Assembly (NCBI GenBank): GCA_965215275.1
Contig: OZ244044.1
Span: forward strand, 736,001-800,000
Length of the DNA: 64,000 nucleotides
Source: Thermodesulfobacteriota bacterium
Lineage (GTDB): Bacteria > Desulfobacterota_D > UBA1144 > Nemesobacterales > JAJCZQ01
Reading direction: 5' to 3'
Positions 1-61,634 of the stretch are shown one piece after another (the stretch's first letter is position 1; each line of letters opens with the position of its first letter). The translations under genes were made by a program, and so were the position numbers. The notes beneath the pieces were generated by a model. That model was not told where the DNA came from. It was given only the letters and a program-made list of their open reading frames with translations, and did not search any database.

Positions 1-2
1 CC

Positions 3-1427
3 TCTGACCACATTCTCTTTTGATATAACGTTCCCAGCTTGCATCGGGAGACTCTCGTCCTTATTCCCACCCGACAAAAAGGATAAACCTCTTTTGAGAA
101 CGTTATTAGCTGCGTTTAAGTCAGCATGGACTTTATAACCACAGGACATGCACTTAAATAACTTTCCTTTTCTGTTATTTTTAGCTACGTATCCGCATGC
201 AGAACAGGTCTGGCTTGTGTATTGGGATGGAACTCTTATTATCTTACCTCCAGTGCTCTCAACCTTGTAAGTAAGCTGACTAAGGACCTTTCCCAATCGC
301 TGTTCCTGTATAGACCTGTTCAATCCTGATTTCTGCTTTACGTTCTTACCTGGATCTTCCACGGTCCCCTTAGCGGACCTTGTCATATTCTTTAACTTTA
401 GATCTTCTACTATAAAATGATTACCATGACCCTTTACTATCCCTGTAGTTAATTCATGTATTTTATTATGTTCCCTTTCAGTGGTCCTTGCACGTTCTTT
501 GGCATAAGCTGTTTTCTTCTTGTTTCTGTTGTTAGATCCTTTTTCTGCTCTGCTTATTGCTCTTTGCTTTCTTTTAAGTTCCTTCCTGTCTATTTCTGTT
601 CCTTTATAGAAAGTTCCATCCGATAAGGTAATTCTGTTCTTCACTCCGAGATCTATCCCTATCGGTCTGTCTGACCCTCTGTCCACTCCTGCAACGGTTT
701 CATATACAAACTGTATCTCTACTCTTAAAGCAGTTCTTACTATCCTTATGTATTTAGTTCCTTCCGGTATCCTGCCTTTGAAACTCATCCTGCCTGCTCC
801 TCTTACCGACAAGGAAGTTCTTCTGTCTTGTTTCTTAACTCTACTCCATTGGTAAGTTTCAAAACTTTTTATCTTTCTGCTACTGTTCTTATATCTCGGA
901 CGACCACGTATCCCTTTTAGATATTCTTTATAAGCCTTATCCAGTCTTTTTAATGTCTTCTGTTGTGCTTGAGCGTCAACCTTACTAAACTCATCAGACA
1001 GTAAAAGGTCGTTCCTTATTTCCGTCAGTGATCTTGCCTGATCTTCGTAACTGATAGATTTCTTTCCTATTTCTTCTTCTGATAACTCTCTCCAGTTTAA
1101 CGGGTCGTTACAAGGTCGGACTTCACTTCTAACCCTGTTAAGAGCTATATATACCTTGTCTATATGTTTAACTGTATTACCTTTATTATAAGAAAGTCCA
1201 GACTTCCAGTGTGGATAGAAATACGTCTTAAATCTCTTTTCTGATAAACCCCATTTCATCAGTTTCTCATATTTATCATATGATCTTATCCTTTCTTCAC
1301 GAGCTCGGTTATAAAGGTAGGTAAGCTGGTTTAATGTATGTTCCAGCTTCTTATGAGCAGACGGGTCTAACTTAACCGCCCTGCGGTCTACTCTCGTTTT
1401 TCTGATCACACTTCCTTCACTATCCAT
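3..1427 (-). CDS. tnpB: RNA-guided endonuclease TnpB (3' end runs off the window; absent from ORF track)
   Basis: Hand translation from ATG 1427 (MDSEGSVIRKTRVDRR...) gives RuvC-I PIGIDLGV, RuvC-II IVEDLKL, zinc finger CSAC/CMSC and RuvC-III HADLNAA in one frame; clear paralogue of 36211..37602. Confidence 0.92.
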   Translation of the reverse strand, partial: MDSEGSVIRKTRVDRRAVKLDPSAHKKLEHTLNQLTYLYNRAREERIRSYDKYEKLMKWGLSEKRFKTYFYPHWKSGLSYNKGNTVKHIDKVYIALNRVRSEVRPCNDPLNWRELSEEEIGKKSISYEDQARSLTEIRNDLLLSDEFSKVDAQAQQKTLKRLDKAYKEYLKGIRGRPRYKNSSRKIKSFETYQWSRVKKQDRRTSLSVRGAGRMSFKGRIPEGTKYIRIVRTALRVEIQFVYETVAGVDRGSDRPIGIDLGVKNRITLSDGTFYKGTEIDRKELKRKQRAISRAEKGSNNRNKKKTAYAKERARTTEREHNKIHELTTGIVKGHGNHFIVEDLKLKNMTRSAKGTVEDPGKNVKQKSGLNRSIQEQRLGKVLSQLTYKVESTGGKIIRVPSQYTSQTCSACGYVAKNNRKGKLFKCMSCGYKVHADLNAANNVLKRGLSFLSGGNKDESLPMQAGNVISKENVVR

Positions 1428-1481
1428 ATCTATATAATTCCCTGATTTACAGCACTATCAAAGCTATTTGCTTGTCTTTGT

Positions 1482-1502
1482 CTAACAGAGTATATAATCC
1501 CC
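1482..1502. repeat. Cassette end motif (right-end orientation) 75 bp upstream of tnpB
   Basis: gagtatataatcccc at 1488-1502; same spacing from the tnpB ATG as the end at 37653-37674. Confidence 0.7.
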
Positions 1503-31576: not shown

Positions 31577-31594
31577 TTTATGTATATAATTCCC
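31577..31594. repeat. Cassette end motif (right-end orientation), no partner found
   Basis: tttatgtatataattccc; 17-bp exact reverse complement of 63318-63334. Confidence 0.65.
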
Positions 31595-31643
31595 AAAGTT
31601 AAAATGGAAAAAACACTTCCGGTGGTGCTACGGGTATTTTAAG

Positions 31644-31702
31644 ATCAGAAGAGCAAGAAGAACTCTGCAATCAGAAGAGCAAGAAGAACTCTGCAATCAG
31701 AA
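31644..31702. repeat. 26-bp tandem repeat x2.3
   Basis: atcagaagagcaagaagaactctgca twice plus atcagaa. Confidence 0.9.
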
Positions 31703-36120: not shown

Positions 36121-36260
36121 GGGACTTATATACTTTAGTACATAAGTACTAAACATACTGTTCTGCAAGCAGAGTCCCTCTTAATTCCCCGTTCTCTTTT
36201 GATAAAACATTTACAGCCTGCATCGGGAACTCAAGTCTGGCTGTCCCACCCGACATAGTG
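36121..36260 (-). ncRNA. Putative omegaRNA scaffold overlapping the tnpB 3' end
   Basis: Conserved with 1-76 and 58417-58545; perfect hairpin tttagtac-ttat-gtactaaa; tcggg/cccga stem. Confidence 0.6.
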
Positions 36261-37602
36261 TCTTTTCACTATTGCAAATGTTTATAGCTGCATTCGTGTC
36301 TGCATGGTCTTTATGACCGCAATACACACACTTAAATACTTCTCCTTTTCTGTTCCTTTTATCTCTGTATCCGCACTCAGAACAGGTCTGTGACGTCCAT
36401 TGAGCCGGGTTCCTGATCAGCTTGCCACCAGTGCTTTTAACCTTGTATTCAAGCTGATTTAATACCTTGCCCAATTGCTGTTCCCGTAAGGACCTGTTTA
36501 ATCCAGATTTCTGCTTTACTTTCTTACCCGGATCTCCCACGGTCCCCTTTGCCGATCTGCTCATATCCCTTAATCTCAGATCTTCTGATATAACAAAATT
36601 ATACGCTCTTGACAGTTCTGTAGTTAACCTGTGTATTTTGTTATGTTCCTTTATTGCTGTTCTTGCTCGTTCCTTCCCAAGCAGTTTTACCTTCTTCTTT
36701 CTCCCGTTGGAACCTTTTTCAGCTCTTGAAACTGCTCTTTGCTTTCTTTTGTCTTTCTTTCTGCTTACTTCAGTTCCCTTGTAAAACGACCCATCTGATA
36801 AAGCAATCCTGTTCCTTACTCCAAGGTCTATTCCTATCGCTCTGTCCAGTCCTCTGTCCTCTCCAGCTATTGTTTCGTAAATAAACTGGATCTCTACTCT
36901 TAAAGCTGTTCTTAATATCCTGATGTATTTTGTTCCTTCCGGTATGCTTCCTCTGAATGAGATCCTGCCTGCTCCCTTTACCGTTAAATATGTCCTTCTC
37001 TCTCCTTTCTTTACATTTCCCCATGTATATGTTTCAAAACTTCTTACCTTCCTGCTGCTGTTCTTATATCTAGGACTGCCTCTCAATCCTTTAAGATGTT
37101 CACTGTATGCCTTATCCACTCTCTTTAACGTCCTTTGCTGTCCCTGAACGCCTGCCTTGCTGAATTCTTTCAATAAAACATCATTCCTTATCTCAGTCAG
37201 TGACTTCGCCTGATCTTCGTAACTTACTGACTTCTTCTTTATCTCCTGTTTTGTTAACTCTCTCCAGTTAACTGGATCTTCGCAAGGTCTTATAGTACTT
37301 ACAAACCTGTTAACTGCTTCATAAACTGTATCCAGATATTTAACTCTGTTCTTCTTGTTGTAAGAAGTACCAAACTCCCATTGTGGGTAGAAATACATCT
37401 GTAATCTTTCTTCTGACAAACCCCACTTCTTCAGCTTCTTGTATTTTTTGTACGCTTCTTTCCTTTCTTCCAGAGCGCTGTTATACAGATAGGTAAGCTG
37501 GTCCAAAGTCCTTTCCAAACCCTTATGAGTTGAAGGGTGATTCAATCCAGCCACTCTGCGTTCCGTCCTCGTCTGCTTAATTATCCTGTTTTCTCTATAC
37601 AT
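36211..37602 (-). CDS. tnpB: RNA-guided endonuclease TnpB
   Basis: AIGIDLGV, ISEDL, CSEC/CVYC, HADTNAA: RuvC D-E-D intact. Confidence 0.95.
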   Translation of the reverse strand: MYRENRIIKQTRTERRVAGLNHPSTHKGLERTLDQLTYLYNSALEERKEAYKKYKKLKKWGLSEERLQMYFYPQWEFGTSYNKKNRVKYLDTVYEAVNRFVSTIRPCEDPVNWRELTKQEIKKKSVSYEDQAKSLTEIRNDVLLKEFSKAGVQGQQRTLKRVDKAYSEHLKGLRGSPRYKNSSRKVRSFETYTWGNVKKGERRTYLTVKGAGRISFRGSIPEGTKYIRILRTALRVEIQFIYETIAGEDRGLDRAIGIDLGVRNRIALSDGSFYKGTEVSRKKDKRKQRAVSRAEKGSNGRKKKVKLLGKERARTAIKEHNKIHRLTTELSRAYNFVISEDLRLRDMSRSAKGTVGDPGKKVKQKSGLNRSLREQQLGKVLNQLEYKVKSTGGKLIRNPAQWTSQTCSECGYRDKRNRKGEVFKCVYCGHKDHADTNAAINICNSEKTLCRVGQPDLSSRCRL

Positions 37603-37730
37603 TCCTCTGTAATTATACCACGATCACACTTAGCTATTAAGTCCTTTGTTGGGTACTTAAGTATATAAGTCCCCAATTTTTTATTATGTTTATCCAACTC
37701 GTGATTTGTTTAAAGAATAAAGGTTAAGAT

Positions 37731-37868
37731 ATGGGTAGGAAACAAAAGATAATTCCCCCATTAGATGCAACATTTGATGAAGCAATAAAAATAATGTTTG
37801 CTCCCCAAATAGAACTATCTAAAAAATATAGAACTCAAAGAAAATTAAAAGAAAATGAAAAAAGTTAA
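37731..37868 (+). CDS. 45-aa micro-ORF between stacked cassette ends
   Basis: MGRKQKIIPPLDATFDEAIKIMFAPQ...; similar peptide at 45345-45476. Confidence 0.55.
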   Translation: MGRKQKIIPPLDATFDEAIKIMFAPQIELSKKYRTQRKLKENEKS

Positions 37869-37895
37869 GTAAATCAAAAGATTAAATTATCTTGG

Positions 37896-37940
37896 GTACT
37901 AAAGTATATAGTCCCCTTTTTTATTAAAGTATATAAGTCC
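37896..37940. repeat. Two further right-end motif copies
   Basis: gtactaaagtatatagtcccc (37896-37916) and ttaaagtatataagtcc (37924-37940). Confidence 0.8.
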
Positions 37941-37954
37941 GTCAATTAATGATC

Positions 37955-51595: not shown

Positions 51596-51774
51596 GGACT
51601 TTTATTATTCTCTATTTTTACCATAAATTAAAGAACGGTCTTTAAAAAGCTGCGAATTTCCTGTCATTCTTTTTCCCGTAAAACTTTAATGATAATTGGA
51701 CTGTTCCCTTACTCTCAAACAGGAATCAAAAATACAACTACAGATTTTTTCAGTATGAGATATCATTCATCCAC

Positions 51775-51804
51775 TTGACATTCGTTCATAATACCTGGTA
51801 AAAT
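51775..51804 (+). promoter_or_regulatory. Sigma70-type promoter for S8 paralogue 2
   Basis: TTGACA-18 bp-TAAAAT with extended TG; homologous sequence precedes paralogue 1 (~17800-17860). Confidence 0.5.
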
Positions 51805-51909
51805 AAAAGAGTTATGAAAAATCCAAATATAAAAAATGTAGTTCCATTACCCCACCCCCCCCCGTGTATACCTGAACTTTCAGTTATATATAAGTATTTT
51901 GTAAGAACA

Positions 51910-54571
51910 ATGTTTAAGATAATACCCCCCCCCATCTAAGTCATTACTAACTTTAGTCTTTATTCTTCTGTTTATACTGGTAATAGCTGCAAAAGGGCAG
52001 AGCAGCCTGGAAGAAACATTATCTGAATGCAGAGATATCAGTGCAGGAACGGAAGATCCGTTATACGGATGTCAGTGGCATCTGAAGAACACAGGACAGT
52101 TAATTTATTCAGGTAAGAGAATAACATCAGGAGAAGATATAAACATAGAGGGAGTGTGGAACGAAGACGTATACGGTGCCGGAATTAACGTAGCAGTAGT
52201 AAGTGACGGCATAGACCTTTCACACGAGGACCTTTCTGCTAACGTCCGTTCCGGACCGAACTATGATCTTTCTGAAAGAAACAATTCAGAAGAGAACAGT
52301 TCAGAAAAAGATAATTCAGAAAGAGATGATCTTTCAGACGGTTCATCCTTTACCGGAACACGAGCGGCAGGAGTAACAGCAGCAACTGGATATAACGGAC
52401 TGGGAGTAAGAGGAACAGCACCTGGTGCGAGTATATACAGTTACAGGTTATCCGGTGATCTCAGTGAAGCGGACGCGGTGGTCCGTAATAAGGAAATAAC
52501 GGCAGTATCGGTTAACGGCCGGGGATCTGAGGACGGAGCTTTTTTTCAGGAGGCTTTATCTTCCTGGGAAGAAGGAGTGGAACTTGGTATAAGTAAAGGG
52601 TTTTATGGTAAAGGAGTGTTTTACGTCCGGGGAGCAGGGGACGGGCATGAGAATAACGATCAGGCTAATTTTTCTGAATATTCTAATTACTACGGCGTAA
52701 CTGCCGTGTGTTCAACAGACGGCTTTGGAAAAAAGAGTATATTTTCAGAAGAGGGAGTAAATCTATGGGTATGTGCACCTGGTTCTGATATTGTAACTAC
52801 TGATAACAATAACGATTACGTTGTAACATCCGGAACTGTCCTATCAGCTTCACAGGCTGGAGGAGTGGCAGCACTGCTGAGAGAGGTGAATGGAAATCTG
52901 AGCTGGAGGGATATAAAGCTTATACTTGCGGGTTCAGCACGGCAGAACGACGTTTCTGACCTTATCTGGGAGACTGGAGCATTTAAATACGGCTCTGACG
53001 TGGAAAGATATAAATATAATCCTAAGTATGGTTTTGGAGTGGTAGACGCGGAAGCAGCGGCAGAGCTTGCAGAAAGCTGGAAAGGCGTTGGTGAGATGAG
53101 GACCGTTACAGCCTTTTCAGATAATGAGATAACAATTCCTTATGGAGAAGGGAATGGAGAAGGAGAGGCAGACGGGGTCGCTGTCTCAGGACTTATTATC
53201 CCTGACCTTGAAGAAACAACGTTTACGGAGTTCGTTGAAGTTGAACTTGTTCTCTCGTGTGACTGCTTACAGGACCTCAATATAAATATAACCTCTCCTT
53301 CCGGGACAGTATCTGAACTTGTGCGGGAGGTTGTAAGTGGACCTTCGGATGAAAAAGAAAAGAACTGCGTCAGTTACCTGAGAAGAACACATCGTTTCGG
53401 GTCGGCAAGACACCTCGGAGAAGACCCTTCCGGAGAATGGATCCTTCATATAACTGATACTGCTTATGGAGATGAAGAAAATGAAGAAAACACCGTTACC
53501 CTGCACTCATGGAGCGTTAAGGTGTATGGACATTTTTATCAGGGATCTGGCAGTGAGATCACTCCTAAAGCTTTAACCTTCGGCGGTGCGACGATCCCAA
53601 CCCAGAATTATTTTGTAGGAGAAGCAATAACACCAGTAATGCTGCCTGAGGCAACCGGGGCAAGCGACATAACATACAGTTTTAATCCTGCTTTAGCAAG
53701 AGGATTGGAATTTGATCAGGATACCCGAACTATAAGCGGAACACCAGCTATTACTCATGTGTCAGGTCGTTTGTATTCATATGTTGCAAGAGGTGGCGGA
53801 CGGATTGTAACTATACCTTTTACTATTAGAATTAGCCCTCGACGAGTGCCGACCTTCGGCAGTGAGACCATAGATAATAAAGTGTATATAAACGGCATTA
53901 CAGCAGTAAATGAAACACTGCCTGAAGCAACGGGAGGGAATGCTCCATTAACTTACAGTTTAAGCGGTACTTTACCTATTGGAGTAATTTTTACCGCAAA
54001 CACCAGAGAGTTAAGTGGAACACCCAATGTTGATAATAATCTAAGTATACTTCCTTTAACTTTGTCTTACACATATAAAGTAACAGACAATGATGGAGAT
54101 ACAGAAGAGATAACGTTCAGTATCACTACAGAAGAAGACAGCGACCCGGACTTCAGCGGTGTGACAATACCTGCTCAGGTGTACAGGGGGAGAACAATAA
54201 GTCTGCCTGAAGCAACGGGAGGGAATGCACCGTTAAGATACAGTATAGATCCTCGTTTACCGACGGGAATGAGATTGAACGAAGACACAGGGGTAATAAG
54301 CGGGACGCCCGCGAGTGCGTCGTCTGAGAGGACCTACACGTACACGGTAACGGACAGGAATGGAGGTACGGACGAGTTGACTTTCATGCTCAGTGTAGCG
54401 GCACCTCCACCGACATCAACGGGCAGTGGTTCAGGCGGAGGTGGAGGAGGATGTGCGATATCAGATCAGAGCAGCACTGCTTCTGATATTCTCGGAGTAA
54501 TGATATGTCTGATGCTCATACCTGTGTCAGTAGTGATTAGAAGGAAGAGAAGAGATCAGGTAAAGAATTAG
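51910..54571 (+). pseudogene. Kexin-like S8 homologue 2 (catalytically dead), signal peptide out of frame at a C9 tract
   Basis: ATG 51910 hits TAA 51937; removing one C gives signal peptide plus DPLYGCQWHL in frame with 52154..54571; D->S, H->T, S->V. Confidence 0.8.
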
Positions 54572-54821
54572 CAATGAGATTATTTTCCAAAACACTGAAC
54601 GAATTAAAATCTCTCAGCCAGAATAAAGGAATAATAGTGGAAAGACTAAATATAGATCTATCGGCAAATGGGTACCTTGATGGTATTGATGCTTGTTTTT
54701 TTAATCTCGGACAATACAGTATATAATGCCCAAAGAAAAACATCTAGAAAGTAAATTAAATTACCTTATTCTTGTCTTTCTAATTGAAACAATAGTCACA
54801 ACTTATAACTTTAATCTCAGG

Positions 54822-56168
54822 TTAAACACATATGTCGGATAAAGTATCAACATGGGGCAACTGGTTATTGTCTGTGAAACTCTGAAGATGTATAACTTCT
54901 GTTTTTTGTTTTTGTAGTTTTATTTGTTTGACAATATTACTGACTACTCTTGTATTTACAGCATTGCCTAATGCTCCAAAGGCAAAAGATTCCATGTCGG
55001 GCAGGCTGATATCCTTAAATCCTTGTAATTCTTGAGCTTCCCTTAGGCTTAAATAACGCTTCTCCCAGGAAATAATCGGCGTTTGAGTTCTTGTTAAAAC
55101 TAAAGAAGGAATTGACGCACGACTTTTTACACGAATGCCAGACGACCTAAACTGTAGTAAGTATTTAAAAATATCTCTTTCTCCATCACCAGCGTTCCAT
55201 TCCAATTTCTGCCAACTATTAGGATAAATCCTTACTTCATTTATTATAGATTTAATATATGTTTTGTTCTTCTGCCAAAAATCTCTATTTTTTTGAATAT
55301 ATTTAATTTTCCATTTTGGAAATTCTTTTTGTTTATATGTAGCGTAAACAGGTAGTTTTTCCAACTGCACTTTTTTTGGAAGTCCTTTTAAACTTCGACC
55401 AAATGCTCCCTTGTAATTTGATAATTCTTCTTGAGTCATATAAAAAGGACATTTACCATCTATAGGATAGTTGGCTCCAAACTCCATTGACCATACTGGA
55501 AATTTAGGTAAGGGTTTGTTTTTAGGCAAACATGCTATAAACCTTTGCCAGAAACTTAGACATTTTAACTGCTGATTAGAAAGTTTTTTGGCGTTTGTAG
55601 GATTGTTTTTTAAAAAATTTTTTATGTCATCAATTTCTTTTTCTTCTTGTTTAAAATCAAACATAACACTTCTTTCTTTTTTATGTGTTCCTACAATAAA
55701 CACCCTATTCCTATTATTAGGTATACCGAAGTGATGTGGGGAGAGAATAAAATCTTTCACTATATAGTGACAATCTTCTAACAAGTTCTGGATGATTTCC
55801 CATGTCTTTCCATGGTCATGTGATTTAAGATTTGGAACATTCTCCAGAATGAAGTATTCGGGTTGGTGATATTTTAGAACTCTTATAATCTCATAAATCA
55901 TTTCACCCGACTTAACATCACTAAACCCCTTTTGGTTTCCAGCTTTAGAAAAAGGTTGGCATGGAAATCCTGCACACAGTATATTATGTTCTGGGATTTT
56001 GGTTTCATGTATTTGAGTAATATCTCCATGACATTGCATCCCAAAGTTTTTCTTGTATAAGGATCTGAGTTTAGTATCAATCTCTGAAGCAAAAACACAT
56101 TCTAGTCCTTCATCTTTTAAAGCAATATGAAAACCTCCTAACCCTGCAAAAAGATCTATAAATTTCAT
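54822..56168 (-). CDS. DNA (cytosine-5)-methyltransferase
   Basis: DLFAGLGG, GFPCQPFS, ENV, LGNAV. Confidence 0.95.
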   Translation of the reverse strand: MKFIDLFAGLGGFHIALKDEGLECVFASEIDTKLRSLYKKNFGMQCHGDITQIHETKIPEHNILCAGFPCQPFSKAGNQKGFSDVKSGEMIYEIIRVLKYHQPEYFILENVPNLKSHDHGKTWEIIQNLLEDCHYIVKDFILSPHHFGIPNNRNRVFIVGTHKKERSVMFDFKQEEKEIDDIKNFLKNNPTNAKKLSNQQLKCLSFWQRFIACLPKNKPLPKFPVWSMEFGANYPIDGKCPFYMTQEELSNYKGAFGRSLKGLPKKVQLEKLPVYATYKQKEFPKWKIKYIQKNRDFWQKNKTYIKSIINEVRIYPNSWQKLEWNAGDGERDIFKYLLQFRSSGIRVKSRASIPSLVLTRTQTPIISWEKRYLSLREAQELQGFKDISLPDMESFAFGALGNAVNTRVVSNIVKQIKLQKQKTEVIHLQSFTDNNQLPHVDTLSDICV

Positions 56169-56986
56169 ACTTGGATTCTATCTTCAAGTTTAAGTTTTTT
56201 TATATCTGAACGAATAGATTCGATTTCTTTATTATTAGAATTGGCTAAAAGCCTAATCAGTCTAACGCGGTCCAGAATAAATCCTTTCTCACTCGATTCA
56301 CCAAGAGTTTCCTGGCTATTGTCCACAAGTAAATCTGCTATAGCAAAAACCTTTATCGGTTGTGCTCCAAACTCAATAAGGTTTTTCCACATATCAATAT
56401 TAACAGGAAAACCCTTTTTCCATTTTTGACCTGATTTACATTCTACCAAGAGAATAATTTTGCCTCCTACTTGATCCAAGGGTTTCCATACAATTATATC
56501 AGATCTTATATTGTCAGAATGTCGAAAAGTTTTATTAGCATCATGTCGAGGTTTTTCATGAAGTTCTTCATTGCAAAACCTTTCAAAATCACACGACTTT
56601 TTGAGAATATCAATAAATTTATATTTGGTATTGTCCCCTAAATAACTCTTAATCGCCTCAGCGGTTATCTTTTCAAAATATTCTGATATATGATAACCAT
56701 CGTTTATTAGTATAGCAGAAATACAAAGCAAATATTCTTCCCTAGCTCTAAATTTTTTATCAAATTCTATCAATTCAGAATCTTCATCATAACAGAATAC
56801 GGCTTCCCCGTATAACCCAACTAAATCTTTACACCTGTTAAACTTATCATTTAGTTCATTCTCAACATTACAACCTTCAATATCATAATCTTCGTTGGTA
56901 TTTTCTTCAATTTCACTCCGTAATTTATGTTTAGACACTGAATTACGCAAAAGTAAATATTTTTCCACATCTATTAAGTCACTCAT
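56165..56986 (-). CDS. Hypothetical protein with PD-(D/E)XK-like motif
   Basis: SDIIVWKP...LVECKSG; overlaps both neighbours. Confidence 0.65.
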   Translation of the reverse strand: MSDLIDVEKYLLLRNSVSKHKLRSEIEENTNEDYDIEGCNVENELNDKFNRCKDLVGLYGEAVFCYDEDSELIEFDKKFRAREEYLLCISAILINDGYHISEYFEKITAEAIKSYLGDNTKYKFIDILKKSCDFERFCNEELHEKPRHDANKTFRHSDNIRSDIIVWKPLDQVGGKIILLVECKSGQKWKKGFPVNIDMWKNLIEFGAQPIKVFAIADLLVDNSQETLGESSEKGFILDRVRLIRLLANSNNKEIESIRSDIKKLKLEDRIQV

Positions 56987-58097
56987 TACTAAACTTCTTA
57001 TTGATATCCTCTGTAATATATAGAATTGACTCTATATTTTTCTTTAACTCTGTCCCGACATCGTGGAATAAAACGTTTTCTATTTTCATTCCAGATAACT
57101 TGCCGTTGATTTTTTCCAAATTATCTCGTGCTGATTTAGAATACTTTGCCAAGGCATGAAATTCGCCTCCAATCATATCGAATGAACTATTTATGTTTTC
57201 ACCTTGTTCTAGATCTGCTGTAGCTTCAGCATCTGCAAATATAAGGTTTAATTTGTTTGTTATATCTCTTGATTCTTTTATTAACGAGTTTCCATATTTT
57301 TTAGAATCAAACAAACATCGGAACAAGAATTTCAACTTCTCTTTTTTATCGGTTGGTATTGGGTCGTCCCAATCTTTTATATCTTTCCAAGCAGGCAATC
57401 CAATATAATCTTTTATTGGTCCTTGCCCAGTAGCCAATTGCAAAAATGAAAAATTACTTTTAGCATCTTTAGTGTCAAGACTCTCATCGTACTCTTCAAT
57501 TATCTCTATCAGACGATAGCAAGCATATGTCTTTTTTGATGAATTTTTCCTATCCCCGATTATTTTTTGAATATCTTCAAGGGTATAGCCTTTATCCCTT
57601 TTAAGTTGAACAATGTATCTAGCTCTCTCATAAACATCCCATTTCCTAACCCCAGCTAAGTGATGGACTCCCAAAAAACGCAAAACTTCATCTCTGCTTG
57701 GATAAAACAAAACCGGCAAATCAGTAAATTCACTTATAAGGTTAGGCGAGGCAGGTATGCCGGGAAATTCATTGTTCTTTAGTCCAATTATTGTAGCGAG
57801 CCTTCTGTTACCTTCCGCTACAATAAACTTATTTGTTTGATCTTCGTGATAGTTTTCATAGTCTTGTTTGGTTTTAATATCTCCTTTTTCGGGAATTACC
57901 ACTAAAGGTTCTGCTTCAAAATACCCATTTTCTACCATAGAAAACGCTAACTCTTCCAAGTCATAAGCCTTCTTCATATGATTTTGTATTTGTTTCTGCT
58001 CTCCTTTTGCAATACTCTCAGGCAGTCTTGGATTTTTACTATCCAAAATTAGTCTGTCTGAATTCACTCTAATAATTCTAGGTTTTATTTTTCCCAT
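56979..58097 (-). CDS. ParB/Srx N-terminal domain protein
   Basis: LDSKNPRL, EPLVV, VAEGNRRLA. Confidence 0.75.
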   Translation of the reverse strand: MGKIKPRIIRVNSDRLILDSKNPRLPESIAKGEQKQIQNHMKKAYDLEELAFSMVENGYFEAEPLVVIPEKGDIKTKQDYENYHEDQTNKFIVAEGNRRLATIIGLKNNEFPGIPASPNLISEFTDLPVLFYPSRDEVLRFLGVHHLAGVRKWDVYERARYIVQLKRDKGYTLEDIQKIIGDRKNSSKKTYACYRLIEIIEEYDESLDTKDAKSNFSFLQLATGQGPIKDYIGLPAWKDIKDWDDPIPTDKKEKLKFLFRCLFDSKKYGNSLIKESRDITNKLNLIFADAEATADLEQGENINSSFDMIGGEFHALAKYSKSARDNLEKINGKLSGMKIENVLFHDVGTELKKNIESILYITEDINKKFSNE

Positions 58098-58416
58098 GAT
58101 ATTTTTAGAAAATTATATAGATAATATGACAAAAGTATAAAGATCTTTCCATTTTCTTTATACGTTCTGAAAATATGTAAAAATTTTTGCGATTTTTTTA
58201 CATATTAACTCTTCATTGCTTTACTAAATATGATAATTTAAGTACTATATTCTTCTGTTTTTTTACTCCTTTCTATTTTACCATAAAAGTCTTGGAAACC
58301 CTGTGAATTCTTGTTTTATGATTATTTCATCTTCTTCATCTCTGGCTTTTAACACTCTTGTGTTGGCATAATTGATATAGTCCCACTCCTTGTATTATAA
58401 TTCCTAAACAGCCAAA

Positions 58417-58545
58417 GGAAATAATATATTTTAGCACCAAAGCACTAACTACACTGTTTTACGAGCAGGTATCCTCTGTCCCTGAAACCTTTTGAGTTAA
58501 AACATTCCCAGTTCGTATCGGGAGACTCTCGTTTTTCTCACAGGT
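58417..58545 (-). ncRNA. Orphan omegaRNA-like sequence without tnpB
   Basis: Collinear with 36121-36230 and 1-58 (atcgggagactctcgt identical to 43-58). Confidence 0.6.
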
Positions 58546-58671
58546 TTTCTGTCAATAAGGGTGTATATTTTTTTCCATTGAAGACACAAACTGCAGATAC
58601 AATGTCATCATTTGACAGATATGCTGACGGAAAATTTCAGTCCGTTCAATGCCTTCGAAATATAGACTGCA

Positions 58672-61002
58672 TTAATACATCTTTATATGAGGCCTTATCT
58701 TCCTTCTGATCACTACTGATACAGGTATCAGCATCAGACATGCAATTACTCCAAGCAGATCAGAAACAACATCGTTCTGATCGGAGATCGTACATCCTCC
58801 TCCACCGCCGGCATCAGTATCTGGCGTCCGGTCTTCTATTGGACTATTTACCCTGATCGCAAAACTCAACGAAGCCATATCTCCATCTGCGTCTGTTACC
58901 GTATATGTGTAAGTAGTTCTTCTCATTGCACTGGTGAGTGTTCCACTTATCACTCGAGTGGTTTTATTAAAACTCAATTCAGCAGGTAAAGCAGGAGTTA
59001 AACTGTAAGTTAATGGAGCATTCCCTCCTGTTGCAGCAGGTAACGTTTCTGTTACTGCTGTACCCCACATATACTCCTTATCAGTTATCATCTCATTGCC
59101 AAAGGTCAGTGCTGTATGACCATGAACTTGAACGCTCCACGAGTGTAAAGTCCCTATACCATTTCCAGAACGAGTGTCAGATATCTTCAAAGTCCATTCT
59201 CCAGAAGGGTCTTCTTCGAGATGCTTAGCTGAACCAAAGCGATGAGTGTGGTTGGTGTATGCAAAATCCCCGCGTAAGATCTGAGAGACATATATAACCG
59301 ATCCCGCTACATATTCCTCGGTAAGTTGCGACACAGTACCCTCAGGGGACGTTATCTGTATCTCTAACTCCGGAAAGAAAGTGTGAGTGAACGTGAGAAC
59401 TATCTGTACAAATTCTGTAAAAAGATCAGTATCAGTTATGGTCAGGGTGCTTGTAATTCCAAGTGGGTCATTATCAGGAATTGCCTCCTCGACACTCTCA
59501 TAAGCAATCAGAGTTCTCATCTGTGGAACCCTGTTCCAACTTCTGGAAAGTTCTACTGCAGCCTCAGCATCCACTACGCCAAAACCGTACTTTGGATTGT
59601 AATTATAACTGTCTGTATCAGAACGGTATTTAAGTGCTCCCATCTCCCAGCCCGGATCGGTCGGGTCGGTCTTGCGGGCTGAAGCTGCCAGTATCAGTTT
59701 CAGGTCCCTCCAGCTAAGATCACCGTTTACCTCCCGCATCAGTGCTGCAACCCCCGAAACGATCGGAGCAGAAAGTGACGTTCCGTTAACTCCAATACGA
59801 TAACGGTCTTTATTAGTGGTCGTTGTAATAAGCGAACCTGGAGCACATACCCACAGATTTACTCCCTCTTCCGAAAAGGAACTTTTCCTGCCACTGCCAT
59901 CTACAGAACAGATGGAAGTTACAGCGTAGTGGTTAGAATACTCTTCAAAATTAGCCTGGTCGTATAAAGTATGTCCATTTCCAGCTGCCCAGCTGTAAAA
60001 AACTCCTTTGCCACCAAACCCTTCCCTGATACCTGTTTCCACTGCCATTTCCCAAGCACTGTCAGCAGGGTGAAGAACGGCAGTATCCGGTGCTCCCCAG
60101 CTGTTGTTGGATACTGCAGTTGTAGTTCGGTTACGGGTCATAGCATCCGCCCTGTTAGCCCTAGTAAAATTACCCCCTCCTATCAAGTTATAATTATAGA
60201 TACTTGCCTGAGGTGCCACTCCTCTTATACCAATCCCATTATCACCCACCGCTGCTAAAATGCCCGATACATTTGTACCATGAGCATCTAAAGGATTAAA
60301 TACATTTCTGTTTCCAGAGTAATCATGATTCAGGCTGGGATTTACATTGGCAGCCAGGTCCTCATGATCGGGGTCCATACCACTATCTACCACCGCCACG
60401 TTAATTCCATTCCCAAATACTGCATCATTCCAGACCCCCTCCACGTTTATATCTTCTCCAGCAGTTATTCTCTGCCCGTTGAACTCCAACTGCCCCGTAT
60501 TTTTCAGATGATACTGACAGCCATATAAGGGATCGTTAAAATTAGTGGCAATGTTCCCACAATCAGATAACAGATCATTATAATCAGTATCCGTTGCAAC
60601 TGTAATCTGGTAATCAACAGCTCCACTGCTTCCCACAACGATATAGTACGTTCCAGGTCTGAGACGAGCTGGAATTCCGAGGCGAGCTATAAGACTGTTA
60701 GTCCTATTTGCTATCAGATTATAGTTGCTGTCACAAAGCTGTAAACTGTAATCTAAATTATTATGGGTGAAGGTTGTCTCTATATTTACGTTAACGTCAG
60801 ATGCCGGGTCTATCTGAAAATATTCCAGTCCACCGGCACTTTCAAAACTTCCATCGTGTGCTGCTCCGTCCACTGTCAACGTGGCTTCAACCGTTTCACT
60901 GGAGTCGCAATTATTATCACTGGTCTGACCATATGCACCTATGGACACAAAACACATGAATGCAGATACAAAACACAGCAGATAAAATGATGGGAATTGC
61001 AT
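58672..61002 (-). CDS. Kexin-like S8 serine protease (intact triad) with PPC-like N domain, P domain, Ig-like repeat and GGGGC-TM tail
   Basis: VAVVDSG, AHGT, AAGNG, NGTSLSAP. Confidence 0.92.
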   Translation of the reverse strand: MQFPSFYLLCFVSAFMCFVSIGAYGQTSDNNCDSSETVEATLTVDGAAHDGSFESAGGLEYFQIDPASDVNVNIETTFTHNNLDYSLQLCDSNYNLIANRTNSLIARLGIPARLRPGTYYIVVGSSGAVDYQITVATDTDYNDLLSDCGNIATNFNDPLYGCQYHLKNTGQLEFNGQRITAGEDINVEGVWNDAVFGNGINVAVVDSGMDPDHEDLAANVNPSLNHDYSGNRNVFNPLDAHGTNVSGILAAVGDNGIGIRGVAPQASIYNYNLIGGGNFTRANRADAMTRNRTTTAVSNNSWGAPDTAVLHPADSAWEMAVETGIREGFGGKGVFYSWAAGNGHTLYDQANFEEYSNHYAVTSICSVDGSGRKSSFSEEGVNLWVCAPGSLITTTTNKDRYRIGVNGTSLSAPIVSGVAALMREVNGDLSWRDLKLILAASARKTDPTDPGWEMGALKYRSDTDSYNYNPKYGFGVVDAEAAVELSRSWNRVPQMRTLIAYESVEEAIPDNDPLGITSTLTITDTDLFTEFVQIVLTFTHTFFPELEIQITSPEGTVSQLTEEYVAGSVIYVSQILRGDFAYTNHTHRFGSAKHLEEDPSGEWTLKISDTRSGNGIGTLHSWSVQVHGHTALTFGNEMITDKEYMWGTAVTETLPAATGGNAPLTYSLTPALPAELSFNKTTRVISGTLTSAMRRTTYTYTVTDADGDMASLSFAIRVNSPIEDRTPDTDAGGGGGCTISDQNDVVSDLLGVIACLMLIPVSVVIRRKIRPHIKMY

Positions 61003-61634
61003 GTTTATAACTTCTGTTTGTAATTACCTGATCGCAACCTCACGCCATCAGTTGTAATTTGATAATACCATACTACTGTAAAAAAGAATTTTGGTCTTTT
61101 TAGTTGCTGAGGATATTTGCATCTTTAATGACTCTGATAAGGTAATTGCACTTGGTTTTAACAAACTGTTTATCCTCAATCTTCTCGACATCGAATGCAA
61201 TCTAAACTTACCTATTTTTATAAATAAACCTCTGATCTTTGACTATGAACATCTGAAAGTTATAAGAGCAACATTTACTTTAAAGTGCGGGCAGATGGGT
61301 TATAATACACAACGGATCTAATATATCATGGGATGTATAAAGGATATGAATTATTTCCTTTTATGTCTCGCAGGATATGATAATAAATATAAACTCAAAG
61401 GAATGTGTCCTGTGTTCGGGTTAGATGGTTATACTAATCATAAGAATGATGTTGATTTTATGATCAAAGATTTCAAAGGTATTACAGACGATACTGTTTA
61501 CTAGATCACAGAAGGAATATTTAGTAAAGTATATTTTAGTCCATTCCCAGGAAGAGATATTAACGTTTACATATGTAGTTTTTTAATTATTTCTTGTTTA
61601 CTAAAGTATATCATTCCGAAAAATCCAATAGAGG

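Follow-up and report, generated by a model that had tools for sequence, protein, structure and literature searches.

A truncated TnpB scaffold end of IS1595 type behind an S8 protease gene is likely a relic

The 3' part of a TnpB guide-RNA (omegaRNA) scaffold, fused to an IS1595-type inverted repeat, lies behind an S8 protease gene with no effector gene in cis. We consider it likely, with good confidence, that this orphan end is a relic chimera that makes no guide. As to its origin, we lean towards a truncated right end of a TnpB element having been joined to the 3' region of the S8 gene by deletion or recombination, likely leaving no working guide. An A2/A3-like TnpB element would have inserted next to an S8 gene, one of about 57, and would then have lost its left end, its tnpB and the first 10-15 nt of its scaffold. 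The remainder would be a transposase end with an incomplete RNA, drifting since, and the same joining would have taken place independently at other S8 genes.

The window, that is, the whole stretch of 64,000 nucleotides that was analysed, corresponds to C1:736001-800000 of a 1.99-Mb single-contig genome; positions below refer to the window unless given as genome positions. The orphan end and the S8 cassette are the right part of an island. As read from the sequence, panK directly adjoins the epimerase gene in a genome of the same genus (G001) and one of the same family (G002); here the two genes are about 10 kb apart, and the gap is filled by two S8 genes, a C5 methylase that is accompanied by two ORFs, and the orphan end. 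The C5 DNA methylase and the two ORFs of 273 and 372 aa (54822-58097, minus strand) probably form a restriction-modification cassette; neither ORF matched an entry in Pfam or NCBIfam. The S8 query had no match at 1e-30 in G001-G004 and G048, and therefore these genomes have no orthologous locus. Contigs of four sequencing runs (at most three samples from one study, possibly the genome's own source) covered 54628-58727 with zero differences. In these contigs, which drop rare variants, there was no joint across the cassette, nor across the TnpB element at 36 kb.

The TnpB elements of this genome have IS1595-type inverted repeats and 8-bp target duplications. An end motif starting GGGAATTATATAC occurred 191 times above 16 bits, compared to 3 times in a shuffled genome, and a perfect 8-bp duplication flanked 20 of 149 inward-facing end pairs within 9 kb (0.6% for random pairing). 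A cluster of 23 ORFs adjoining these ends was identified as IS1595 transposase (Pfam DDE_Tnp_IS1595, 5.5e-36); an 8-bp target duplication is typical of the IS1595 family. The genome has 21 TnpB loci, with 17 intact ORFs falling in clades A1, A2/A3, B and C, two split ORFs and two remnants; RuvC motifs are present in the one copy checked. Most of these loci stand alone between IS1595-type ends and would be moved by a transposase acting in trans. The duplication was kept in none of the four clade-A1 elements (best 5/8). Beside the A1 element in the window, at 37673-37941, three inverted-repeat ends lie stacked, together with a short AT-rich module that recurs elsewhere in the genome. The same layout, a solo tnpB between ends, was found in 31 of 123 external loci, and 21 of these 31 have a duplication of at least 7/8 (two rows being one element). 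The loci with this layout come from Thermodesulfobacteriota/Ca. Dadabacteria, Caldilineaceae, Rhodothermales, Gammaproteobacteria, Acidobacteriota and Dehalococcoidia. A literature search, mostly beyond subscription journals, returned no paper on TnpB within IS1595 ends or on orphans of this kind.

Several of these elements have been rearranged. A clade-B element is inserted in a clade-A2 element (L011 region, left neighbour 1624475), and in one external locus (L179, G053) tnpB is split by what appears, by eye from the translation, to be a reverse-transcriptase-like ORF. In another (L202, G021) tnpB is internally deleted and the scaffold kept; plain tnpB-deletion derivatives of this sort were also seen at genome positions 1953215-1953763 and 1743059.

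The TnpB elements' 3' end, about 135 nt common to clades A and B, holds a conserved RNA with two stems, P1 and P2, and a 3' hairpin. P1 (UCGGG/CCCGA) is invariant in clades A and B of the genome though it is read in different tnpB frames, and its pair types are changed in seven external scaffolds of genus g10, which were located by anchors; the constraint is therefore one on RNA. In P2, three of the seven pairs are changed on both sides, and 100% of cells pair, compared to 37-54% in slid controls (nine related sequences). All 13 P1 and P2 pairs are present in 15/15 scaffolds of intact tnpB copies. In the same 15 copies the stretch from AACA to the last six bases of the repeat forms a hairpin, which was better than the mean of swapped halves in 13. 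The GGGA of the P1 loop is complementary to the terminal UCCC in 42 of 45 elements overall, and this core is fully Watson-Crick in 16/16 tnpB-linked copies of the genome. Covariation at a fifth pair is weak; it was found 28 times versus 21.8 in shuffles (p 0.0045), a value to be read with kin that are not independent and external rows chosen by a GG[GA]A pattern. If ISDra2 is taken as a model (PMC10097598), a pseudoknot from loop to end would set the guide start at the last base of the repeat; complementarity is what suggests this pseudoknot, and the role given to P1 is equally putative. Ensemble probabilities in nine tnpB-linked copies were 0.17-0.96 for P1 and 0.47-0.92 for P2. With the HMMs of G000, none of the 123 external loci gave a credible scaffold (one match, E 0.45); external scaffolds were read by anchors.

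Bases just outside the element ends are biased in a manner that resembles a TAM. Clade-B elements have TG|T before the 5' end in 6/8 cases, versus 1/112 for other ends and 0/8 at their own 3' ends. On the 3' side, 16/16 clade A/B elements have T as their first flank base, against a background of 53/112. Among external elements, G precedes the duplication wherever there is one (13/13, nine of them TG), versus 1/13 on the other side; this count leaves out 5 of 18 elements that have no duplication. Clade-specific bases of this kind are also seen outside the 5' ends of both intact TnpB elements in the window (1-1502 and 36121-37673). The predicted TAMs are TG|T for clade B, an A|T type for clade A2, and G or TG for genus g10. 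TnpB would cut empty sites that bear a TAM, and the flank bias is indirect evidence, drawn from sequence, for TAM-dependent, flank-guided retention of these elements. It agrees with the view in the first-pass annotation that the guide would be the flank. A guide inside the element, right after AACAGU, had also been considered; two observations led to this reading being discarded: the stretch in question forms a hairpin with the repeat, and the flank carries the TAM-like bias.

The features of the orphan end, its neighbours and the reference elements are collected in Table 1.

Table 1. Coordinates of the scaffold end, the S8 gene and related features (window positions unless marked as genome)
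Feature	Position	Strand	Evidence or remark
Relic right end: 5'-truncated omegaRNA scaffold with terminal inverted repeat, clade-A2/A3-like	58417..58543	-	blastn, HMM, CM
IS1595-type terminal inverted repeat	58417..58441	-	19.2 bits, end profile
Putative 3' pseudoknot strand AUUUCC, last 6 nt of repeat	58422-58417	-	UCCC in 16/16 tnpB-linked copies
3' hairpin of scaffold, intact, 12 bp	58423..58454	-	-7.4 kcal/mol (intact-tnpB copies -3.3 to -10.9)
P2 3' arm GCUCGUA	58460..58466	-	
P2 5' arm UACGAAC	58511..58517	-	6/7 pairs possible, two changed on both sides relative to clade A
P1 3' arm CCCGA	58518..58522	-	5' partner missing
Damaged pseudoknot loop strand GAGAA, junction zone	58535..58539	-	GGGAA/GGGAC in tnpB-linked copies
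Flank that would be the guide	58397..58416	-	no near match elsewhere in genome
S8 3' untranslated module, 128 nt	58544..58671	-	72-90% to genome 633728, 424036, 424985, 665621, 397707
S8 subtilase, 776 aa; P-domain, Ig domain, poly-Gly/hydrophobic/basic tail; one of 57 paralogs	58672..61002	-	Pfam
Second IS1595-type inverted repeat, facing the 58417 end	61594..61618	.	25.2 bits
Intact TnpB element, clade A1, 463 aa, reference copy	36121..37673	-	Pfam, end profile
Intact TnpB element, clade A2, 484 aa	1..1502, begins 56 nt before window	-	perfect 8-bp duplication
S8 tails with antisense 5' half of scaffold-like sequence	genome 1508110, 1106246, 1086059, 268382, 1276583, 1614696, 1748597, 1339251, 704161		

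The first-pass annotation had reported that the first 130 bp or so of the cassette are collinear with the end of the TnpB elements, and blastn, an HMM and a covariance model all recovered this similarity, over about 127 bp. The blastn match was 72% over 118 nt to a TnpB end at genome 1619492-1619606. An HMM of 17 tnpB-derived ends gave E 5.2e-10, the best match on the reversed genome having E 9.1, and a covariance model of nine tnpB-linked scaffolds scored 43.7 bits at 58452-58548. The nearest tnpB-linked scaffold, from clade A2, is 74% identical over 94 nt; the 3' part of the orphan is A3-like. Two further statements of that annotation were confirmed: the cassette has no tblastn match to TnpB, and the gene upstream on the scaffold strand encodes an S8 protease (Pfam Peptidase_S8, P_proprotein and He_PIG; triad motifs D206/H241/S409, from which peptidase activity is predicted). 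The 5' arm of the scaffold had been described there as eroded. It has instead been replaced by S8 3' sequence: the module shared with S8 paralogs runs to about 58544 and scaffold similarity begins at 58543-58539, and therefore the 5' arm of P1 was cut away.

What remains fits the suspicion, already voiced in the first-pass annotation, that the end may be a relic. Three of six P1 pairs and six of seven P2 pairs are kept; the anchors for these counts were set by an automatic procedure, whose placement may be wrong where a copy is heavily decayed, and two anchorless rows were left out. Ensemble probability is 0.00 for both P1 and P2, and the pseudoknot core has one mismatch and one wobble. P1, P2 and the pseudoknot strands thus depart from a complete scaffold fold. 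The 3' hairpin is present and lies within about 10 nt of the putative guide, as in ISDra2-like TnpB omegaRNAs; in a swap control, 6 of 15 swaps folded equally well. P2 has two double changes, one of them from A-U to G-C, which may predate the truncation and derive from a subfamily now missing. This P2 variant was not found in any intact element, either in metagenome contigs (degenerate pattern, 0 matches) or in the 123 external loci. Methylation-driven decay at TGCA and AGCT may account for the double changes, but these words are only mildly depleted (0.84 and 0.93). Rfam returned nothing near the gathering score on 58300-58700. The flank reads UUUGGCUGUUUAGG, as originally given, and its first base is T. 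As a guide it has no target in the genome at one mismatch or fewer over 14 nt, and its longest perfect seed is 12 nt, versus 10-14 for 16 tnpB ends. Just beyond the end, at 58364-58405, there are two degenerate end-like motifs, seen by eye and under the profile threshold. The same interval has an 11/12 sigma-70-like promoter on the plus strand that would read antisense into the relic; promoter prediction found 5 versus 3.5 expected, and none was predicted on the sense strand between the S8 gene and the scaffold.

A right end near 61598 had also been proposed, and an inverted repeat is indeed found there, but no evidence was found that it pairs with the 58417 end. Both repeats at the cassette are of the type that bounds the IS1595 transposases of the genome. 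However, there is no 8-bp duplication between them in the expected register (CAGCCAAA versus AAAAATCC), and they are identical at 17/25 positions, a value reached by 58% of random pairs; in 19 of 20 duplicated end pairs there are 22-25 identities. A sign that these are two cognate ends mobilised together is thus absent. At 23/25 positions the 61618 end agrees with the left end of the A2 element at genome 1618044-1619604, which carries the nearest tnpB-linked scaffold and whose own ends are 16/25 alike, but it is equally close to a non-TnpB end. The resemblance to the A2 left end extends over no more than 27 nt, and the longer matches are non-TnpB ends. A 10-nt repeat at 51817 and 61619 was considered as an island-wide duplication and rejected; it sits in a start module common to many S8 genes. 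This module has a poly-C run just after the ATG (for example at 51760-51940), and a C8+ or G8+ tract lies at most 700 nt upstream of the catalytic domain in 50 of 57 S8 loci, with 139 such tracts genome-wide; the sequence pattern of these modules suggests phase variation.

The orphan end is not unique in the genome. With 150 of 292 candidates scored, the covariance model gave at least 31 matches at E<0.002, 16 of them tnpB-linked and 15 tnpB-less, and the HMM added two tnpB-less scaffolds for a total of 17. All 13 pairs are kept in 2 of 16 scored orphans, one of them doubtful, and 14 have broken pairs; four other orphans that were folded had a P1 probability of at most 0.14. Five of the 17 lie at most 300 nt behind one of 60 S8 tails, compared to 0.9% for the genome as a whole and 12/191 for strong ends. 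A sense scaffold match within 300 nt is absent at the other 55 tails, and the five junctions are of three types. At nine further S8 tails there is a left end with only an antisense 5' half of scaffold-like sequence (three of these were HMM seeds). Repeated end capture and decay account for this pattern better than a guide system that is being maintained. The window contains a second orphan scaffold, in a more decayed state, at 31589-31681 (plus strand, 32.2 bits), right after an inverted repeat and with an internal duplication. Duplication of the downstream gene explains why an orphan flank at genome 1886979 and 1903327 is matched perfectly over 17 nt at another place.

Two tnpB-less scaffolds are small elements in their own right. 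The first (L194:1332-1588, G048:C1:1922216-1922472) is a scaffold-only element of 257 bp that has both repeats and is flanked by a 7/8 duplication preceded by TG; it has no tnpB match, P1 is 6/6, P2 7/7 and the pseudoknot match 5/5. One full copy was found across the 36 genomes searched. Judged by its sequence, it is the strongest candidate among natural elements for a TnpB guide that acts in trans in IS1595 ends. The second (L232, genome 1484743-1484963) is 221 bp long and scaffold-only, with 13/13 pairs, eroded ends and a 6/8 duplication.

Against this background, the truncated-end reading draws on the junction inside the scaffold with S8-paralog sequence running up to it, on the contrast between 15/15 intact-tnpB copies and 2/16 orphans with complete P1 and P2, and on the missing duplication with 61618 where 20/149 nearby pairs have a perfect one. 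The intact hairpin, the two P2 double changes, the T in the flank, the enrichment of orphans behind S8 tails and the A2-like sequence of the 61618 end count against it. Some of the same observations would suit a true cargo exchange that has since decayed, in which the S8 gene replaced tnpB between the 61618 and 58417 ends, the unit moved whole, and duplication and scaffold eroded later, leaving no working guide. The 61618 end resembles the left end of the very element with the nearest scaffold, the two ends of that element are themselves only 16/25 alike, and other S8 genes do lie between ends with 7/8 or 8/8 duplications (genome 1156380-1159188 and 1532715-1540173). Such an exchange is nevertheless rather unlikely here, given the lack of a duplication in register, the short reach of the A2 similarity and a closest S8 paralog that has a different scaffold at the opposite end. 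The exchange proposed in the first-pass annotation thus survives in that the end derives from a TnpB element, whereas the junction, which cuts the scaffold, and the missing duplication speak against a clean swap.

The same annotation had suggested that the RNA might load TnpB in trans, so that one nuclease guards many cassettes. Under this proposal S8 mRNA would run through the scaffold, and a clade-A TnpB would trim and load it and cut cassette-less alleles. The hairpin and most of P2 are kept on the S8 strand, the genome has 17 intact tnpB ORFs, TnpB processes the 5' end of longer RNAs (PMC10278001), and standalone omegaRNAs are described as working in trans (PMC10691335). We regard a working guide at 58417 as improbable, with the P1 arm replaced, the inferred pseudoknot strands mismatched, misfolding predicted and only 74% identity to any tnpB-linked scaffold; moreover, no empty site with TAM and guide can be reconstructed where a cognate left end is lacking. 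The wider idea of one guardian nuclease is weakened by the damage in most other orphans and by the antisense halves. Less probable still is that the hairpins were kept as a stabilising or terminating structure at the 3' end of the protease mRNA: sense orphans are enriched behind S8 tails and the 3' hairpin is intact, but a sense scaffold is missing behind most S8 tails, the region shows no folding advantage over shuffles (z -0.36) and there is no terminator-like site at the hairpin.

A bolder proposal is that IS1595 transposons recruited TnpB, that the inverted repeat is the 3' core of the guide RNA, and that any IS1595 cassette with a scaffold-bearing end, whatever its cargo, directs TnpB in trans to the empty site of that cassette. 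That this holds at any locus is doubtful; for the 58417 locus it is improbable, and for intact mini-elements such as L194 it is a tentative possibility, still on the unlikely side. If true, cargo like the 57 S8 proteases would have spread through a shared RNA-guided retention service. The 58417 locus by itself is most likely debris and matters little. The family comparison, in turn, yields a testable model of TnpB in a cut-and-paste transposon with target duplications, with a predicted scaffold, guide start and TAMs, and with natural scaffold-only elements. If the latter work in trans, cargo cassettes could gain RNA-guided retention while encoding no nuclease, and the PATE idea would extend to DDE elements.

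IS1595-family elements with passenger genes (transporter IS, or mobile cassettes) exist. The S8 cassette resembles them in having unrelated cargo between IS1595 ends, and some S8 genes have matching duplications; it differs in that one end is TnpB-derived and the 58417/61618 pair has no duplication. The closest parallels on the RNA side are the standalone omegaRNAs, or PATEs, of IS200/IS605 (PMC10691335; bioRxiv 10.1101/2023.03.14.532601), which act in trans. Like these, the orphan combines a scaffold with an element end, lacks a nuclease gene and occurs where intact tnpB copies are present in the genome; unlike them, it is of IS1595 type, truncated, fused behind a protease gene and with no sign of moving as a unit. 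Because trans-acting standalone omegaRNAs are already known, the intact scaffold-only mini-elements would be the IS1595 version of a known kind. The TnpB elements themselves resemble the DDE-1 to DDE-6 branches of PMC10691335 in having a solo tnpB between inverted repeats, with its 3' end near the element end, and in presumably being mobilised in trans; there, IS630 is named for DDE-6, and IS1595 is absent from the main text, with a profile entry in one supplement. As in the omegaRNA of ISDra2 TnpB (PMC10097598), the scaffold overlaps the 3' end of tnpB and has stems, a 3' hairpin and, here as a putative feature, a pseudoknot from the last bases to a 5' loop, and the hairpin is singled out in PMC10278001 as the most conserved feature of TnpB scaffolds and the sole one to be conserved consistently. 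Unlike in ISDra2, the 3' arm of the hairpin and the pseudoknot strand, the latter proposed from complementarity, would here be the inverted repeat of the transposase.
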